A DNA stretch of 64,000 nucleotides from Thermodesulfovibrionales bacterium (GTDB taxonomy: Bacteria; Nitrospirota; Thermodesulfovibrionia; Thermodesulfovibrionales; UBA6898). The notes beneath the pieces are model-generated. The model searched no databases and was not told where the DNA came from. It saw only the letters and a program-made list of their open reading frames with translations. How positions within the stretch are numbered: the stretch's first letter is position 1; each line of letters opens with the position of its first letter. Position numbers and translations under genes: made by a program. The DNA lies in NCBI GenBank assembly GCA_044450345.1, contig JBIOIY010000002.1, forward strand, positions 64,001 through 128,000, in the 5' to 3' direction. Below, piece by piece: positions 2,145 through 39,570 of the stretch.

Positions 2145-3314
2145 ATGAAGGATATTTTGGATAGTCTTTCCACAGAGTCAGGAGAATCCCTTGAAAGGCT
2201 CATAAAGGGAGGGGTGTCACGCAGGGATTTCCTTAAATTCTGCACAGGAGTTGCAGTACTGCTGGGACTCCCTGTGGCAATGGGCTCAACGATCGCGGAG
2301 GCTGTGATAAGCTCTAAAAGGCCTCCTGTCCTTTGGCTCTCTGCTCAGGAATGCACCGGCTGTACTGAGAGCCTCTTAAGAACAAACCATCCGACCCTCG
2401 AAAAACTGATCCTCGAACTTATATCCCTTGATTATCACGAGACCCTTAATGCGGGGGCAGGGCATCAGGCCGAGGCTGCGCGTATTAAGTCAATGCAGGA
2501 GAATAAAGGGAAATATATTTTGGTGGTGGACGGTTCCATCCCTGTTAAGGACAATGGAATCTACTGCAAGATCGGCGGAAAAACCGCCCTTTCACTCCTC
2601 GAAGAGATGGGATCCCAGGCAGCGGCGGTCATTGCGATTGGTTCTTGTGCCTCCTGGGGAGGGGTACCTTCTGCAGATCCTAACCCGACCGGAGCAACCC
2701 CTGTTCATGAAATCTTCAAGACCAAGGGCATAAAAACACCGGTCGTAAATATTCCAGGATGTCCTCCCAATGGCTATAATTTTCTTTCCACGGTTTTGTA
2801 CTTCGTGACATTCAAAAAACTTCCGGAATTGGATGATCAGGGCAGGCCCAAGTTTGCCTATGGAAGGATAATACACGAAAACTGCGAACGGCGCCCTCAC
2901 TTCGACGCCGGCAGGTTCGCGGTGGAGTTCGGAGATGAAGGACACAGAAAAGGCTACTGTTTGTACAAACTGGGATGCAAAGGACCTGAGACATATAACA
3001 ACTGTCCCACATTGCTTTTTGGAGATGTGGGGTCCGGTGCGTGGCCTGTGGGGACGGGGCATCCCTGCTTCGGATGTTCCGAAAAAGGGGTCGGGTTTAC
3101 CGTGCCCCTCCATACTCCGTCGAGGCCGCAATATCTTACCCCTCCGGCGTTGTTTACGGAAGTCTACCCCGGTAAAGAAGGTGTTCCGTCGGGAGTCAAG
3201 GCACTGGCTGCCGGCTTTGCGGGAGCAGCGATAGGAGCTGCGGGAGCGGCAATACTTACCGGTCTTGGCAAGAAGGACGAAGAAAAAGAAGACAAAAAAG
3301 ACAAGGAGGGTTAA
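2145..3314 (+). CDS. hybO: [NiFe]-hydrogenase small subunit (Hyb type), Tat substrate
   Basis: Tat motif SRRDFLK, QECTGCTES, GSCASWGG, PGCPP, HENCERR, CLYKLGCKGP, GHPCFGC, C-terminal hydrophobic anchor. Confidence 0.93.
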   Translation: MKDILDSLSTESGESLERLIKGGVSRRDFLKFCTGVAVLLGLPVAMGSTIAEAVISSKRPPVLWLSAQECTGCTESLLRTNHPTLEKLILELISLDYHETLNAGAGHQAEAARIKSMQENKGKYILVVDGSIPVKDNGIYCKIGGKTALSLLEEMGSQAAAVIAIGSCASWGGVPSADPNPTGATPVHEIFKTKGIKTPVVNIPGCPPNGYNFLSTVLYFVTFKKLPELDDQGRPKFAYGRIIHENCERRPHFDAGRFAVEFGDEGHRKGYCLYKLGCKGPETYNNCPTLLFGDVGSGAWPVGTGHPCFGCSEKGVGFTVPLHTPSRPQYLTPPALFTEVYPGKEGVPSGVKALAAGFAGAAIGAAGAAILTGLGKKDEEKEDKKDKEG

Positions 3315-3318
3315 GGCC

Positions 3319-4314
3319 ATGAGTATGGAAAGGCGAGACTTCTTGAAGATAGCCGCCGGAAGCGGACTGCTCCTTGCCTCTAAAGTGAACCCCGCACTTG
3401 CCAGCATGCCTACGGAGCTGCCTCCTCAGGCCGTCGGCATTCTTTATGACGCGACGCTCTGCATCGGCTGTAAGTCCTGTATGGTGAATTGCAAGATTTA
3501 CAATAGCGTACCGGGCGGAGCGCTTTATCAGAAAGGCCGCACAATCTCGTATGAAGTGAAGCCTGGTGAGCCTTATTGGGATGCGGCGGAAAATCTTTCA
3601 TCGAAAACGGTCAATGTTATCAAGATCAATAAAAGCGGGACTGGAGTGAACAAGGACAGCGTTGAAAACGGCTTTTCCTTCATAAAACAGCACTGTCTTC
3701 ATTGTATATCTCCGGCCTGCGTATCGGTATGCCCGGTCGGTGCAATCAAAAAAGATCCTGTGAACGGTGTCGTCTCGTATGATCGAGACCGGTGCTTCGG
3801 TTGCCGTTACTGTATGATTGCCTGTCCGTTCAATATTCCGAGATATGAATTTGAGAGCGCGAATCCAAGGATCAGGAAATGCCAGCTGTGCTATCACCGG
3901 TATGCGGAAGGAAAGTATTCCGCATGCTGTGAGTTCTGCCCGACAGGGGCGTCAATTTTCGGAAAGGTCGTAGACCTCAGGAAAGAGGCCCAAAAAAGAC
4001 TTACGCTGAAACCCGGAACAGAGTATGACTTTCCGGTTCAGACAGTCGATTCGACTCAAAAAATGCGACGCCCTGTTTCAAAGTATTTAAACCATGTTTA
4101 CGGAATGACGGAGGTGGGGGGCACCCAGTATCTATTACTTGCCGGGGTGCCGTTTGATTGGCTGGGATTCAACAAGAATATCAAGGACTCTTACCTTCCC
4201 GATCTTACCTGGGCGTACATAGCCAAGATTCCGGCTGTGATCGCAGGGATAATCCTCGCCGGCACAGCGACCTGGGCCGTTACCAGGAACAAGAACAAAG
4301 ATAAGGAGGGATGA
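3319..4314 (+). CDS. hybA: Hydrogenase-2 periplasmic ferredoxin-type subunit (4x[4Fe-4S])
   Basis: Tat motif ERRDFLK, four Cys-cluster motifs (CIGCKSC, CLHC..CVSVCP, CFGCRYCMIACP, CQLC..CCEFCP), C-terminal TM helix; RBS AGGAGG before ATG 3319. Confidence 0.92.
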   Translation: MSMERRDFLKIAAGSGLLLASKVNPALASMPTELPPQAVGILYDATLCIGCKSCMVNCKIYNSVPGGALYQKGRTISYEVKPGEPYWDAAENLSSKTVNVIKINKSGTGVNKDSVENGFSFIKQHCLHCISPACVSVCPVGAIKKDPVNGVVSYDRDRCFGCRYCMIACPFNIPRYEFESANPRIRKCQLCYHRYAEGKYSACCEFCPTGASIFGKVVDLRKEAQKRLTLKPGTEYDFPVQTVDSTQKMRRPVSKYLNHVYGMTEVGGTQYLLLAGVPFDWLGFNKNIKDSYLPDLTWAYIAKIPAVIAGIILAGTATWAVTRNKNKDKEG

Positions 4315-4318
4315 CCAT

Positions 4319-5446
4319 ATGAACCAGCGAGACATTAAACTGATCACTCCTACCACTGTGGTGCTGCTTCTTATCATTGCCGTTGGCGCTGTCGCTGGCC
4401 TGTACCGGGTGTTCTTCGGACTCGGGGCATCAACGCATCTCAATGATGTATGGCCGTGGGGTTTATGGATATCCTTCGATGTCTTGGGCGGCGTTGCTCT
4501 GGCAGCAGGAGGGTTTGTCATTGCAGGAGCGGTTTATATTTTGAACTGGAAGAAATACAAGCCGATTGTAAGGCCGGCGATACTGAACGCATTTTTCGGT
4601 TATCTCCTGGCGGCTACTTCAATAACGCTTGACATTGGGCTTCCCTGGCGCATATATCACCCATTGATTATGTGGCAGATCAACTCTATTATGTTCATTG
4701 TGGCCATCCATGTGGTGCTTTATACGACCACTCTTGCTACAGAGTCCAGTCCGATGTTCTTTGAGAAACTCAAAATGCCGAGGGCCCTGAACTTCATTCA
4801 AAGGATTATGGTAGGCATAGTCTTGTTCGGCGTGCTTCTTTCCACGCTGCACCAGTCATCACTCGGAGCGGTCTTTCTTATCGCTCCGACGAAAGTGTCA
4901 CCCCTTTGGTACAGCAGCAAGCTCCCTTACATGTTTCTTGTCTCTGCAGTAGTGCTGGCGCTTTCAATGGTGAGCTTTGAGACGATTTTGAGCGGAAGGG
5001 TCTTTAAACATAAGCCCCCCATGGACATCCTCCACGGCATGGCAAGGGGTTCTTTGATTGTTATCGGTCTTTATTTGTTCCTGAAAATATGGGACCTGGT
5101 TAGAGGCCCTGGCATAGGACTGGCGTTTAACGGGAGTCTGACTTCCAATATGTACCTCCTTGAAATGATCATAGGGATTATTCTTCCCTTTGTATTACTT
5201 CTGAATAGCGGCGTTAGGACCCGGCTAAACGGCATTTTTTGCGTCAATATACTCGTGATAATCGGAACCGTGCTCAATCGTATGAACGTCGGCATCTTCA
5301 GCATGGTCGAATACAACGGTTTGATGGGGCGTGATTATTTCCCTTCGTGGATGGAAATCGCGGTCACGATGGCGATGGTGGCCTTTGCAGTTTTGGGATT
5401 TAAAGTCTGCGTAAAATACTTGAATGTTCTGAAACTGGAGCACTGA
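4319..5446 (+). CDS. hybB: Hydrogenase-2 integral membrane subunit (NrfD/HybB family)
   Basis: Multi-TM protein; PWGLWISFD, LHQSSLG, PLWYS motifs; lies between hybA and the large subunit. Confidence 0.92.
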   Translation: MNQRDIKLITPTTVVLLLIIAVGAVAGLYRVFFGLGASTHLNDVWPWGLWISFDVLGGVALAAGGFVIAGAVYILNWKKYKPIVRPAILNAFFGYLLAATSITLDIGLPWRIYHPLIMWQINSIMFIVAIHVVLYTTTLATESSPMFFEKLKMPRALNFIQRIMVGIVLFGVLLSTLHQSSLGAVFLIAPTKVSPLWYSSKLPYMFLVSAVVLALSMVSFETILSGRVFKHKPPMDILHGMARGSLIVIGLYLFLKIWDLVRGPGIGLAFNGSLTSNMYLLEMIIGIILPFVLLLNSGVRTRLNGIFCVNILVIIGTVLNRMNVGIFSMVEYNGLMGRDYFPSWMEIAVTMAMVAFAVLGFKVCVKYLNVLKLEH

Positions 5447-5495
5447 CTATGCGTATGAACTATAGCAGGAAAATATATTTCAGGAGGTGGTCGAC

Positions 5496-7196
5496 ATGGC
5501 AAAAAGGATAACAGTTGATCCCGTAACAAGAATAGAGGGACATCTGAGGATAGACTGCGAAGTTGATGGCGGCAAAGTCACAAATGCCTGGTCCTCCGGG
5601 CAGATGTGGCGAGGGATAGAGGTTATCCTCAAGGGACGCGATCCGCGCGATGCATGGTTATTCACACAGCGCTTCTGCGGCGTCTGAACGTCGGTCCACG
5701 CACTGGCTTCAGTGCGTTCGGTAGAAAACGCCCTGGGGATGGAGATCCCTGTGAATGCGCAATATATCAGGAACATGATTATGGGCGCTCACGCAACACA
5801 TGACCATATCGTCCATTTTTATCATCTTGCCGCTCTCGACTGGGTAGATATCGTCTCAGCCCTTAAGGCCGATGCAAGAGCGGTTTCGAACCTGGGCCAG
5901 AAGCTTTCTCCATGGACGGGGAACAGTTACGCCGAGGTCAAGGCATCTCAGGACAGGCTGAAGACTTTTGTGGGTTCAGGTCAGCTCGGTGTGTATGGAA
6001 GCGGCTATTGGGGCCATCCTGCAATGAAGCTTGCGCCCGAGGTGAACATGCTTGCGGCCCATCATTATCTTCAGGCGCTTGAGTACCAAAGGGAGATCAA
6101 TAAGGTCGTCGGCATTCTCGGCTCGAAGACGCCGCATATACAGAACGTGGCCGTAGGAGGAGTTTCCAATGCCATCAATCTGGACAGCCCTTCGACCCTC
6201 AACATGGAAAGGCTGTACTATATCAAGACGCTGATTGATAAGGTCGGTGACTTTGTTGAAAATGTGCTGCTCGTGGACACTGCCGCAGTCGCTGCGTTTT
6301 ATGCGGAGTGGACAAAGTACGGCTCTGGCGTGATGAATTACCTTTCGGTTCCAGATATGCCAATGGACACTAAGGGTACGACCTTTGCGCTTCCAGGCGG
6401 ATACATCCCCGGTGGAGATGTGGGTAAATTCCAGGCGATAAAGAGTTATCAGGACCCGTTCTTCCGCGATAATGTCAAGGAGAGCATCAAACATTCCTGG
6501 TACGACGGCGACTGGGACCGCCACCCGTACGAGGAAGATACGCTTCCGAAATATACCGACTTCCAGGACAAAGGAAAATATTCATGGGTTAAGTCGCCGA
6601 CTTTCAAGGGTAAACCGGCACAGGTGGGGCCGTTGGCCAATGTTCTCTGTATGTTTGCAGCGGGCCACGAGCCGACAAAAAAGTACGCCACGAAGATGCT
6701 TGATACTATAAGCGCCCTGGCCGGTACTAAAGTCGGGATTGCAGCGCTCCACTCGACAATCGGCAGGATCGGTGCCAGGTCAATCAGGTGTGCGGTACTC
6801 TACGATACCCTAAAATCGCAGTGGCAGGCGCTCGTAGAGAATATCTCGAAGGGAGATGTCAAGACCTTCAACCACCCGACTTTCCCAGCGGGCGAACAGA
6901 GGGGTTATGGTTTTCACGAGGCCCCAAGGGGCGCTCTCTCTCATTGGATCGTCATTAAGGACGGGGCGATAAAGAATTATCAGGCCGTAGTGCCTTCGAC
7001 ATGGAACGCCGGCCCCAGGAACAGCGAAGATGCATTAGGGCCTTATGAGGCTTCCCTTATCGGAAACCCCGTGATAGACGCTGAAAAGCCTCTCGAGGTA
7101 TTGCGGACCGTGCATTCGTTTGACCCCTGTCTTGCATGCGCCATACATATGGTCGACAAGACTAATAATGAAATCGTGAAGGTCAAGGCGGTCTGA
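5496..7196 (+). CDS. hybC: [NiFe]-hydrogenase large subunit (566 aa) with in-frame TGA at codon 64, probably selenocysteine
   Basis: ORFs 5487..5687 and 5712..7196 share a frame, separated only by TGA 5685-5687; read-through gives DPVTRIEGH...QRFCGV[TGA][10 protein letters not shown]...DPCLACAIH plus a cleavable C-terminal tail; RBS AGGAGG before ATG 5496. Confidence 0.85.
5698..5717 (+). promoter_or_regulatory. Candidate bacterial SECIS element
   Basis: ACGCACTG-GCTT-CAGTGCGT: perfect 8-bp stem, 4-nt loop starting with G, loop 18 nt after the UGA. Confidence 0.7.
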
Positions 7197-7203
7197 TAAG
7201 AGC

Positions 7204-7722
7204 GTGAATGTCCTTGTACTCGGGATAGGCAATGTCCTTATGATGGACGACAGCGTCGGAGTGCGTGCTATCGAGGAGCTCGAGAAGAGATACTGCTTCC
7301 CGCAGGGCGTGGAGCTTCTCGACGGCGGTACTTCGGGCATCGAACTTCTCTCGTATATAGGCGACCGCGATCATTTGATCATAATTGACGCGCTGAAATC
7401 GGGACTTCCTCCTGGGACGGTCGTGAAAGTGGAAGGCGAAGATGTTCCCGCAAGGTTCATGACGAGAATATCGCCGCACCAGCTAGGTCTGTCCGATGTA
7501 CTTGCGGCAGCCACAATTTCCGGCCAGCTCCCGAGAAATTTGGTGCTTTTCGGGGTCGAACCCAAAACAGTCAGGCTCGGCCTTGGCCTCTCAAATGAGG
7601 TCAGGGCGAGCCTTGACAAGTTGGTGAGCACGGTGATTGAAGAACTCGGACGCATCGGATGTGCGGTGGAACCTGCTGAGATCGTGTCAACCAGGAGTAC
7701 ACTATGGGAGGCTCTTGGGTAA
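7204..7722 (+). CDS. hybD: Hydrogenase maturation endopeptidase
   Basis: VLGIGNVLMMDDSVG, LLDGGT, IIDA, SPHQLGL motifs; directly after the large subunit. Confidence 0.92.
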   Translation: MNVLVLGIGNVLMMDDSVGVRAIEELEKRYCFPQGVELLDGGTSGIELLSYIGDRDHLIIIDALKSGLPPGTVVKVEGEDVPARFMTRISPHQLGLSDVLAAATISGQLPRNLVLFGVEPKTVRLGLGLSNEVRASLDKLVSTVIEELGRIGCAVEPAEIVSTRSTLWEALG

Positions 7723-17230: not shown

Positions 17231-17743
17231 TCAGAACATCGCTTTGATCTGACTCTTCTCGTCAGGGGAGTTCCAGTCAGCTCCGCCTATTACTCGCCTG
17301 ACCAACACACCCTTCTTGTCGACAATATACGTCTCCGGAACACCCGTCACGCCGTAATTTCGTGCAGAGCTGCCGTCGGGGTCGACGTACACCGGAAACG
17401 TATAGCCGTTTGATTTCATATAACCGATGGCATTCCCCGGGCTGTCCTTATAAAGAATCGTAATCATTACAAAATCTTCTTTGCCCATCATCTCCCTGTA
17501 AAGGGCCTCGATGGAAGGCATCTCTTCCTTGCAGGGCTGGCACCAAGACGCCCAGAAATTGACAAAAATTATCTTGTTCTTCAGATCGGAAGAAAACAGC
17601 TCTTTGCCGCTCGCCGCATCTCTTACTTCAAAACCAGGTGCCTCCGACCCCTTCCCGATATTGCTGCTGCGGGTTGCGTTGAAAAAAAGAAAGGCCGCGC
17701 CTGCTAGAAGGAGGACGGCCAAAATTATGACCTTGTGTTTCAC
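17231..17743 (-). CDS. TlpA/ResA-family thiol-disulfide oxidoreductase
   Basis: N-terminal anchor, NFWASWCQPCKEEMP, GVPETY. Confidence 0.9.
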   Translation of the reverse strand: MKHKVIILAVLLLAGAAFLFFNATRSSNIGKGSEAPGFEVRDAASGKELFSSDLKNKIIFVNFWASWCQPCKEEMPSIEALYREMMGKEDFVMITILYKDSPGNAIGYMKSNGYTFPVYVDPDGSSARNYGVTGVPETYIVDKKGVLVRRVIGGADWNSPDEKSQIKAMF

Positions 17744-38644: not shown

Positions 38645-38977
38645 ATGGCTGAAGGGATTCTTGAGGTTACCACAGCTTCATGGGAACAGGAAGTCTTGAA
38701 TGAGAGCGGATTAGTGCTGATCGATTTCTGGGCAGTGTGGTGCGGTCCTTGCCGTATGATAGCACCGACAGTAGAGGAACTGGCGAAGGAATATGCGGGA
38801 AAGGTAAAGGTCGTAAAGTTAAATACAGACGAAAACCCCGAAATAGCCAGTCGATATAAAATAATGGGCATTCCGACGCTTATGTTCTTTAAAGCAGGCC
38901 AAAAAATAGATCAGATCGTAGGCGCTGTGCCAAAGCCGCAGCTTAAGGCAAAACTCGAAGCGCTGATTAATGCCTGA
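38645..38977 (+). CDS. trxA: Thioredoxin
   Basis: [26 protein letters not shown]. Confidence 0.96.
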
Positions 38978-39039: not shown

Positions 39040-39570
39040 GTGTGGTTTGTGAAAAGAGCATTGCTTCTTATTTTTTTACTCATATCGCTGTGCCTTGTCT
39101 CATGCACAAAGAGCGACACCGGAACGGAAAAGCTTTCCCCTTCACAGACTGCAGGCATGGCGCCGGATTTCGTCCTTAAGGATATCGAAGGCAAAGACAT
39201 ACAGTTGTCCCGCTTCAAAGGAAAAATGGTCGTACTGGAGTTTTGGGCAACATGGTGTCCCCCCTGCAAGGCAACGATCCCGGAATTGATCGCAATGCAA
39301 GAGAAATATGCCGGAAAGGGGCTGGTGGTGCTCGGCATTTCCATTGATGAAGGCGGAGATCTTGCCTCGAAATTGTCTGCTTTTTCAAAAGCGAACAAGA
39401 TCAATTACCCGATATTACTCGGTAGCGAAGAGGTCTCCAGGGCCTACGGCATCATGAGCGTCCCAGCCACGTTTCTTATCGGCAAAGACAACAAAATCAT
39501 CACCGCATACAAGGGATACGTTGATAATCTTGAGGCCCTCATATCTCAGCAGATAGACAAAAACATATAA
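39040..39570 (+). CDS. TlpA-family thiol-disulfide oxidoreductase (lipoprotein)
   Basis: Lipobox-like LVSC, APDF, EFWATWCPPCK, SVPATF. Confidence 0.9.
   Translation: MWFVKRALLLIFLLISLCLVSCTKSDTGTEKLSPSQTAGMAPDFVLKDIEGKDIQLSRFKGKMVVLEFWATWCPPCKATIPELIAMQEKYAGKGLVVLGISIDEGGDLASKLSAFSKANKINYPILLGSEEVSRAYGIMSVPATFLIGKDNKIITAYKGYVDNLEALISQQIDKNI

Follow-up and report, generated by a model that had tools for sequence, protein, structure and literature searches.

A conserved SECIS-like hairpin behind an in-frame UGA in a Hyb-type [NiFe] hydrogenase gene of a Thermodesulfovibrionales bacterium

The window analysed here is a stretch of 64,000 nucleotides from the genome of a Thermodesulfovibrionales bacterium (Nitrospirota; contig JBIOIY010000002.1 of assembly GCA_044450345.1), whose forward strand carries a gene for the large subunit of a [NiFe] hydrogenase with an in-frame TGA codon and, just behind that codon, a short hairpin. 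When TGA is translated as selenocysteine (Sec, U), positions 5496-7196 read as one protein of 566 residues that matches PF00374 at 706 bits, its top NCBIfam match being the hydrogenase 2 large subunit model NF007778 (875.9 bits, under the cut-off of 969). The TGA, at residue 64, takes the place of the second Cys of the N-terminal metal motif RxCGxC, here RFCGV-U-TSVH, and the other three ligand codons encode Cys, including those of the C-terminal motif DPCLAC; the gene thus has the CXXU arrangement in a Group 1 enzyme. A search of the genome, which is 91% complete, returned this protein as the sole PF00374 match, with one TGA inside the match. Standard calling of open reading frames (ORFs) splits the gene into a 66-aa ORF (5487-5687) and a 494-aa ORF (5712-7196), and an automatic annotation pipeline would be likely to report a pseudogene or a pair of fragments. 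The hairpin (5698-5717) is very probably a bacterial selenocysteine insertion sequence (bSECIS) directing Sec insertion at this UGA. The internal TGA would then be a programmed Sec codon, and the two ORFs therefore parts of one gene that ORF callers have split.

The TGA is followed by a 10-nt spacer, ACGTCGGTCC, and then by a stem that an inverted-repeat search recovered as a perfect one of 8 bp, with arms ACGCACTG and CAGTGCGT that are 100% complementary and lie 4 nt apart (coordinates in Table 1). The apical loop, GCTT in the DNA and GCUU in the RNA, opens with a G located 18 nt past the UGA. These features are as they had been described in an earlier interpretation drawn from the letters alone, here called the sequence-only reading. 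The isolated hairpin has an energy of -12.5 kcal/mol, and in RNA folded from the UGA onward, a check which that reading had proposed, the stem forms part of the minimum free energy (MFE) structure, with pair probabilities of 0.84-0.995. Extension of the stem by pairing of two flanking TCGG tetranucleotides, also suggested there, is possible but worth only about -1.2 kcal/mol, and in the register of most homologues 70.5% of the lower-stem cells are paired, making this lower stem poorly conserved and unconvincing. A further proposal, in which TGAACG pairs with CGTTCG and so sequesters the UGA itself, did not survive folding: the pairing is worth -3.3 against -12.5 kcal/mol for the hairpin, it does not exceed a pair probability of 0.003 in any context, and eight of 22 distinct homologues have lost its middle pair. 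An intrinsic terminator or promoter was rejected as an explanation of the hairpin, with 0 terminator-like sites found and no T-run after the stem.

By in-silico standards the hairpin is a member of the bSECIS class. The consensus model of Zhang and Gladyshev (bSECISearch), in the form quoted by a review (PMC13188914), has a loop of 3-9 nt with a G in its first two positions, a stem of 4-16 bp, a spacing of 16-37 nt between UGA and loop, and an MFE of -7.5 kcal/mol or lower; the hydrogenase hairpin, with its 4-nt loop, 8-bp stem, 18-nt spacing and -12.5 kcal/mol, falls within all four ranges. Its position conforms as well, since it is a stem-loop within coding sequence just past an in-frame UGA for which homologues have a Cys codon. 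Relative to bSECIS elements, the upper stem here is perfect and any lower stem weak. In the Escherichia coli formate dehydrogenase (Fdh) genes fdhF, fdnG and fdoG, a spacer of about 10-11 nt separates the UGA from the SelB-binding stem-loop, and both layout and spacer are similar in the hydrogenase gene. On the other hand, the experimentally characterised SECIS of the fdhF type carries a bulged U in its upper stem and a GGUC-like loop whose G and U make contacts, whereas the loop here is GCUU, no bulge is present, and the host gene encodes a hydrogenase.

The hairpin exceeds chance expectation. Perfect hairpins of at least 8 bp with loops of 3-8 nt number 882 in the 3.19-Mb genome, or one per 3.6 kb, and 13 matches fall within the window. 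As a background for position, we took the 644 TGA codons that terminate ORFs of at least 300 codons in the same genome: a G-loop hairpin 16-37 nt past the codon attains -7.5 kcal/mol or lower in 5.0% of them and -12.5 or lower in 0.78%, and one of -12.5 or lower at 16-24 nt is found in 0.31%. The terminal TGA of the hydrogenase gene served as an internal control (Table 1). Finally, when the peptide was recoded synonymously 5000 times according to the codon usage of the genome, a hairpin of -12.5 kcal/mol was attained in only 0.26% of recodings.

Comparison with homologues reveals selection on the RNA that is linked to the UGA. The homologue set combined loci from 41 related genomes with 80 named genome loci, and the N-terminal motif was present in 108 of 110; these comprise 60 CXXC, 33 CXXU and 15 UXXU sequences, such that the UGA codon aligns with TGC or TGT in 60 homologues and with TGA in 33 + 15. 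Within the 41 related genomes, all 12 full-length orthologues (that of the window included; 84-100% identity) carry one TGA, which is kept in relatives of 84-96% protein identity; one orthologue of 73% identity lacks it, and 20 rows belong to a 50%-identical paralogue with two TGAs. In the CXXU genes (32 after exclusion of the truncated L091), synonymous codon differences between pairs of sequences average 0.56 over the whole gene and 0.19 at codons 68-74, which encode the peptide HALASVR. This value is the lowest among 268 codon windows with at least six informative columns, and likewise among 411 with at least five, and the trough as a whole covers codons 68-75 (5697-5720). The trough recurs in the 15 UXXU genes (ranks 1-6 of 418 windows), whereas the same codons in the 60 CXXC genes give 0.585 against a gene mean of 0.554 and rank 174 of 279. 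Relatedness does not explain the trough, because all columns of a group share one tree. The claim of the sequence-only reading that the hairpin arises from synonymous codon choice over HALASVR is thus borne out, both by the rarity of the hairpin among recodings and by synonymous sites that are frozen in TGA-bearing genes.

The hairpin type of the window's gene occurs in 29 of the 33 CXXU genes, from metagenome-assembled genomes (MAGs) labelled Nitrospirota, Thermodesulfobacteriota and Rokubacteria, and these genes share 60-88% gene-wide nucleotide identity with that of the window. Their spacing is invariant and, in the aligned 45 nt (n = 29), 97.2% of upper-stem cells are paired, so that the predicted retention of the stem in TGA-bearing homologues holds for 29 of 29 of this type. 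Five of the eight pairs are invariant, one changes on one side only (U-A to U-G), and two depart only through unpaired cells. The loops read GCUU, GUUU or GUCU, or, where the top pair or pairs are lost, AGUUUC or UGGCUUCU.

The association of hairpin and UGA extends beyond this type. A G-loop hairpin of -8 kcal/mol or lower, 15-30 nt past the codon, is present in 33 of 33 CXXU, 12 of 15 UXXU and 6 of 60 CXXC genes, in a scan that scores contiguous stems only (bulged stems account for two of the three UXXU genes missed); with the threshold at -7.5, 44 of 47 genes with TGA qualify, as do 6 of 60 with Cys. The stem's anticipated absence from Cys homologues therefore stands for 54 of 60, which have no comparable hairpin, and fails for the six that have a stable but different one. 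On a FastTree phylogeny, which provides local supports only, the CXXU label needs five changes, four of them forced by well-supported branches, and 26 genes with the window's hairpin form one clade. Separate TGA lineages carry other hairpins: GGU at 23 nt in L087 and L114, GGC at 23 nt in L056 and CGGGC at 27 nt in L125, the Cys sisters of the latter two (L076 and L095, respectively) attaining only -5.1 kcal/mol each. Overall, at least four other hairpin solutions were seen behind the UGA of CXXU genes, namely CGUGC at 23, GGU/GGC at 23 and CGGGC at 27 nt.

The UXXU sequences (L033-L047) stem from relatives of the window's genome (G009-G040), not from that genome itself, and represent a Group 1-like large subunit that is a paralogue of about 50% identity; 15 of its 20 rows were fetched. 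Their motif, RIUGVUTTVH, has TGA at both N-terminal Cys codons, and their hairpin, CAGCUC-CGUGA-GAGCUG, lies 23 nt past the second UGA and 32 nt past the first; one of them, L036, shows two compensatory pairs. A metagenome sample drawn with the degenerate pattern C-G-V-UGA-T-x-V-H-A provided 80 further loci (L150-L229) with 69 distinct 48-mers, 59 of which contain a hairpin of -7.5 kcal/mol or lower; two others, L176 and L183, do not read as hydrogenase. The window's hairpin appears in 19 distinct metagenome sequences, unchanged in 17 and with its top pair lost (CTG to CTA) in two, one of which has a GUUU loop. Covariation is evident in the same sample, where CUGCUC-CGUGC-GAGCAG occurs 15 times and CAGCUC-CGUGC-GAGCUG 12 times, and in the GGY class an outer C-G pair is replaced by U-A. 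The search for compensatory changes that had been recommended was hence rewarded in other hairpin classes, including L036, though not within the type found in the window. Because these other classes covary, and because separate TGA lineages differ in their hairpins, selection acts on a hairpin at this site wherever the codon is UGA, whatever its sequence.

The genome encodes the machinery that such decoding would require. selB (C20:34986-36836) was found at 382 bits, above its cut-off, with selA directly upstream of it (609 bits); selD is present and itself contains a TGA; and a single tRNA-Sec with anticodon UCA (C4:78884-78981) scores 70.5 bits against the Rfam tRNA-Sec family and is typed as tRNA-SeC by ARAGORN. 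We infer that the hairpin binds SelB, that Sec is inserted, and that read-through depends on the stem. As a ribosome nears the UGA, the hairpin, 10 nt downstream, would stand just outside the mRNA entrance; SelB would deliver its tRNA to the A site, and the UGA would be read as Sec rather than as a stop. The product would be a full-length large subunit of a Hyb-type [NiFe] hydrogenase, with selenium in place of sulfur at the second Cys of RxCGxC, which published work describes as a bridge between Ni and Fe.

Family searches detected six more genes with an in-frame TGA, namely selD, three molybdopterin/Fdh-like genes and two AhpC/TSA peroxiredoxin (Prx) genes. Each is followed by a hairpin: in selD with loop GUG, 33 nt past the UGA (-14.3 kcal/mol); in the three Fdh-like genes with loops GGUCU at 18 nt (-13.6), GGC at 23 nt (-9.6) and GGUCU(G) at 18 nt (about -7.5); in the first Prx gene with loop GGC at 20 nt (-12.5); and in the second with loop GUGU on a bulged stem at about 25 nt, taken from the MFE structure since the scan gave no negative score. 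All six have a G at loop position one or two, 18-33 nt past the UGA. The hydrogenase hairpin has the same 18-nt spacing as two of the Fdh-like genes and shares no sequence with the six beyond the loop G. The sequence-only reading had suggested comparison with the other SECIS elements of the genome, and the general form does match at these six sites; the hdrA gene it had named does not qualify, HdrA and MvhD/FlpD homologues of this genome being without TGA in the family searches.

Several observations weigh against a bSECIS in the window's gene. Within its hairpin type no two-sided pair change was found and the shuffle control was not exceeded (n = 29), and the structure of this type is backed by conservation, not by covariation. 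By the codon reading, the pairs join His2-Arg3, His3-Arg2, Ala1-Arg1, Ala2-Val3, Ala3-Val2, Leu1-Val1, Leu2-Ser3 and Leu3-Ser2. Covariation is absent as expected, because each pair couples a synonymous third position with a base fixed by its residue; given these limits on pairing within a coding frame, the expected signature is one of frozen synonymous sites. The pair probability of the stem drops to 0.34-0.50 in naked RNA of 121-261 nt, owing to rival pairings with upstream sequence; during decoding of the UGA, a ribosome would presumably cover these upstream partners or have passed them already. The MFE of the whole stretch is ordinary (z = -0.62 against dinucleotide shuffles), and over 45 nt some 8-9% of synonymous recodings fold equally well; the signal resides in the local element, not in overall foldedness, and since whole-stretch MFE statistics are uninformative for a 20-nt element, a local hairpin measure was used. 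The second loop base is C, while in the model as quoted the loop G 'often' has a G or U after it (PMC13188914). No Rfam family matched the hairpin, either at gathering thresholds or at E up to 10, in a scan for which it was left unchecked whether Rfam includes a bacterial SECIS model and whose only results were one tRNA at another site and two matches at chance level (E 1.2 and 2.1). Six Cys homologues (L073, L077, L086, L099, L117 and L119) have a stable hairpin of another kind, with a stem of 9 bp (7 bp in L099), a CGGUNC loop at 22 nt and energies from -9.1 to -15.5 kcal/mol, so that the in-silico model is positive for about 10% of the Cys homologues, which have no UGA; these hairpins may be products of chance, leftovers of a Sec codon since lost, or pre-adaptations. 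Finally, independent contrasts between Sec and Cys are few (n = 5): the hairpin is concordant in 4.5 on average and opposite in 0.0, with a median sign-test p of 0.0625, and five pairs cannot reach 0.05. In the naked 121-nt RNA (5655-5775), the UGA region and the 5' arm both have other partners in the MFE fold, and the SECIS stem is left with a probability of only 0.34.

The alternative that survives best, though an improbable one, is that the hairpin is conserved for some function of the RNA apart from recruitment of SelB, for example in ribosome pausing during folding or metal-site assembly, in mRNA stability, or as the binding site of another factor, and that the UGA is decoded by other means. 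Constraint on synonymous sites reveals selection on RNA without disclosing which factor reads the hairpin, and the 20-nt sequence is near-invariant across phyla, more so than a purely structural signal requires. Yet both constraint and hairpin track the TGA and neither is seen at the corresponding codons of 60 Cys homologues, the hairpin recurs with a different sequence in each separate TGA lineage, its geometry fits the bSECIS model and the other UGA sites of the genome, and no alternative SECIS candidate exists within 16-37 nt of the UGA. Somewhat less credible still is recoding of the UGA, aided by the hairpin, to a residue other than Sec, whether to Cys by a SelB-dependent non-canonical tRNA, as discussed by Takano et al. 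(PMC13582414) for UXXU genomes, or to Trp or Cys by near-cognate read-through. With the completeness of the genome at 91%, a second such tRNA may have escaped detection; against this reading, the only tRNA with a UCA anticodon is a tRNA-Sec by both methods mentioned above, and selA and selD are both present. That the hairpin is a chance by-product of HALASVR, and the TGA a nonsense mutation, a sequencing error or the mark of a split gene, is the least probable. RNA that encodes this peptide tends to be structured, and the recodings that fold equally well and the Cys homologues with some stable hairpin lend the idea a little room. Three observations already contradict it: 48 of 108 homologue loci, and additional contigs from metagenomes, have TGA at this very codon; the specific hairpin is rare among recodings; and synonymous sites are frozen only in TGA-bearing genes. 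The frame is also open for 502 codons past the TGA. The sequence-only reading had likewise argued against a random nonsense mutation or base-call error.

The hairpin is almost certainly a signal for Sec insertion, and the mechanism would then be a familiar textbook one, at work in an uncommon type of hydrogenase that has already been noted in print. According to PMC13582414, Baltazar et al. 2011 recorded an N-terminal CXXU in two sequences of Group 1 and one of Group 3, the Sec of this motif being predicted to bridge Ni and Fe; engineered Cys-to-Sec exchanges were made by Evans et al. in E. coli Hyd-1 and Hyd-2 (PMC11212049). As here, these cases involve Sec at the second N-terminal Cys and a Hyd-2-like enzyme; as represented in these two sources, the reports concern the protein (PMC13582414, PMC11212049). 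Takano et al. 2026 described CXXU, UXXC and UXXU N-terminal Sec variants in Group 4 [NiFe] hydrogenases (PMC13582414), with a hairpin within about 50 nt downstream and, in the Sec types, a conserved G at loop position one or two, both as in the present gene; some of their Cys types keep SECIS-like stems with less conservation of the G, a situation paralleled here in 6 of 60. The window's gene differs from theirs in belonging to a Hyb-type Group 1 operon, and their paper describes UXXU only for Group 4 (PMC13582414); the sequence and position given here for the putative SECIS derive from the present analysis. Within the literature searched, 'CXXU' with hydrogenase terms was found only in PMC13582414, and no description of a natural Group 1 CXXU SECIS was found, Baltazar et al. 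2011 itself being outside that search.

The gene is also distinct from those of canonical [NiFeSe] hydrogenases (Hys, with C-terminal UXXC), which likewise have a selenium-containing large subunit through UGA recoding. The NCBIfam models for the latter score far under their cut-offs (NF045518, 352.6 against 780; NF033181, 469.9 against 600), and the SECIS lies about 480 codons further upstream in the gene, because the C-terminal DPCLAC keeps its Cys codons and Sec is N-terminal. Our observations support the existence of natural Hyd-2-type hydrogenases in which selenium occupies a metal-bridging ligand position, one that in the literature searched has been studied only in engineered E. coli enzymes (PMC11212049). 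They also offer a defined 20-nt element, together with natural variants, for work on SelB recognition in Nitrospirota and Desulfobacterota.

A more ambitious view, which we hold only tentatively and regard as rather unlikely, is that the hairpin is more than a generic bSECIS: either a UGA-plus-SECIS module transferred across phyla, or a sequence under specific constraint beyond the needs of SelB, such as a tuned pause at the codon that supplies the metal-bridging ligand. The 20-nt hairpin hardly varies among 29 genome and 19 metagenome sequences under at least three phylum labels, while the remainder of the gene drops to 60-70% nucleotide identity and other hairpin classes drift and covary. 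The same neighbourhood hosts at least five hairpin solutions, one of which, in the relatives' paralogues, may serve two UGAs 9 nt apart. If this view were true, the N-terminal motif of these hydrogenases would constitute a natural series on how much freedom SelB allows.

Table 1. Hydrogenase operon genes and elements of the putative SECIS in the window
Feature	Position	Strand	Basis or remark
Small subunit with Tat signal, HybO-like	2145..3314	+	PF01058, PF14720, TIGR00391; Tat signal TIGR01409
HybA-like iron-sulfur protein	3319..4314	+	NF008134 HybA, 356 bits, above cut-off
HybB/NrfD-like membrane subunit	4319..5446	+	PF03916; NF008133, 281 bits
[NiFe] hydrogenase large subunit, HybC-like, Group 1c type	5496..7196	+	TGA=U translation; PF00374
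Internal UGA of the [NiFe] hydrogenase gene	5685..5687	+	Second Cys of RxCGxC, CXXU type; predicted to be read as selenocysteine
UGA-to-stem spacer, 10 nt	5688..5697	+	Sequence; 0 indels among 29 aligned homologues
Possible weak lower-stem strand UCGG	5691..5694	+	Pairs with 5718-5721 over a 3-nt bulge
Putative SECIS upper stem, 5' arm ACGCACUG	5698..5705	+	His-Ala-Leu codons; columns 14-20 invariant, n = 29
Putative SECIS apical loop GCUU	5706..5709	+	Loop G (G5706, column 22) invariant in 29/29
Putative SECIS upper stem, 3' arm CAGUGCGU	5710..5717	+	Ser-Val-Arg codons; inverted-repeat search
Possible weak lower-stem strand UCGG	5718..5721	+	Codon 75 (5718-5720) still within the trough of synonymous variation
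Terminal TGA of the hydrogenase gene, internal control	7194..7196	+	Best G-loop hairpin -5.8 kcal/mol, fails -7.5
HybD-type maturation endopeptidase	7204..7722	+	PF01750, TIGR00140

Judged by its genes, the surrounding operon is of a Hyd-2-like Group 1, membrane-bound uptake type, a grouping that derives from family matches and operon content and is not a formal HydDB-style classification. Among named records, the closest are MAGs that carry the label Nitrospirota or Thermodesulfovibrionales.

The six other TGA sites of the genome all lie outside the window, at C28:8411(-), C26:23512(+), C2:188532(-), C38:25604(-), C59:13807(-) and C66:6395(-). Scoring of all in-frame TGAs by codon usage was dropped, as the score did not discriminate: it left 861 of 6553 candidates and gave a mere 0.087 to the upstream part of the hydrogenase itself. 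One of the TGA-bearing AhpC/TSA peroxiredoxin-like genes has the motif W-U-P-Y-C. Within the window, AhpC/TSA matches without TGA are found at 39157-39501 (+), 38708-38965 (+) and 17300-17650 (-), and with the two TGA-bearing paralogues elsewhere it follows that Cys and Sec forms of this family coexist in the genome.

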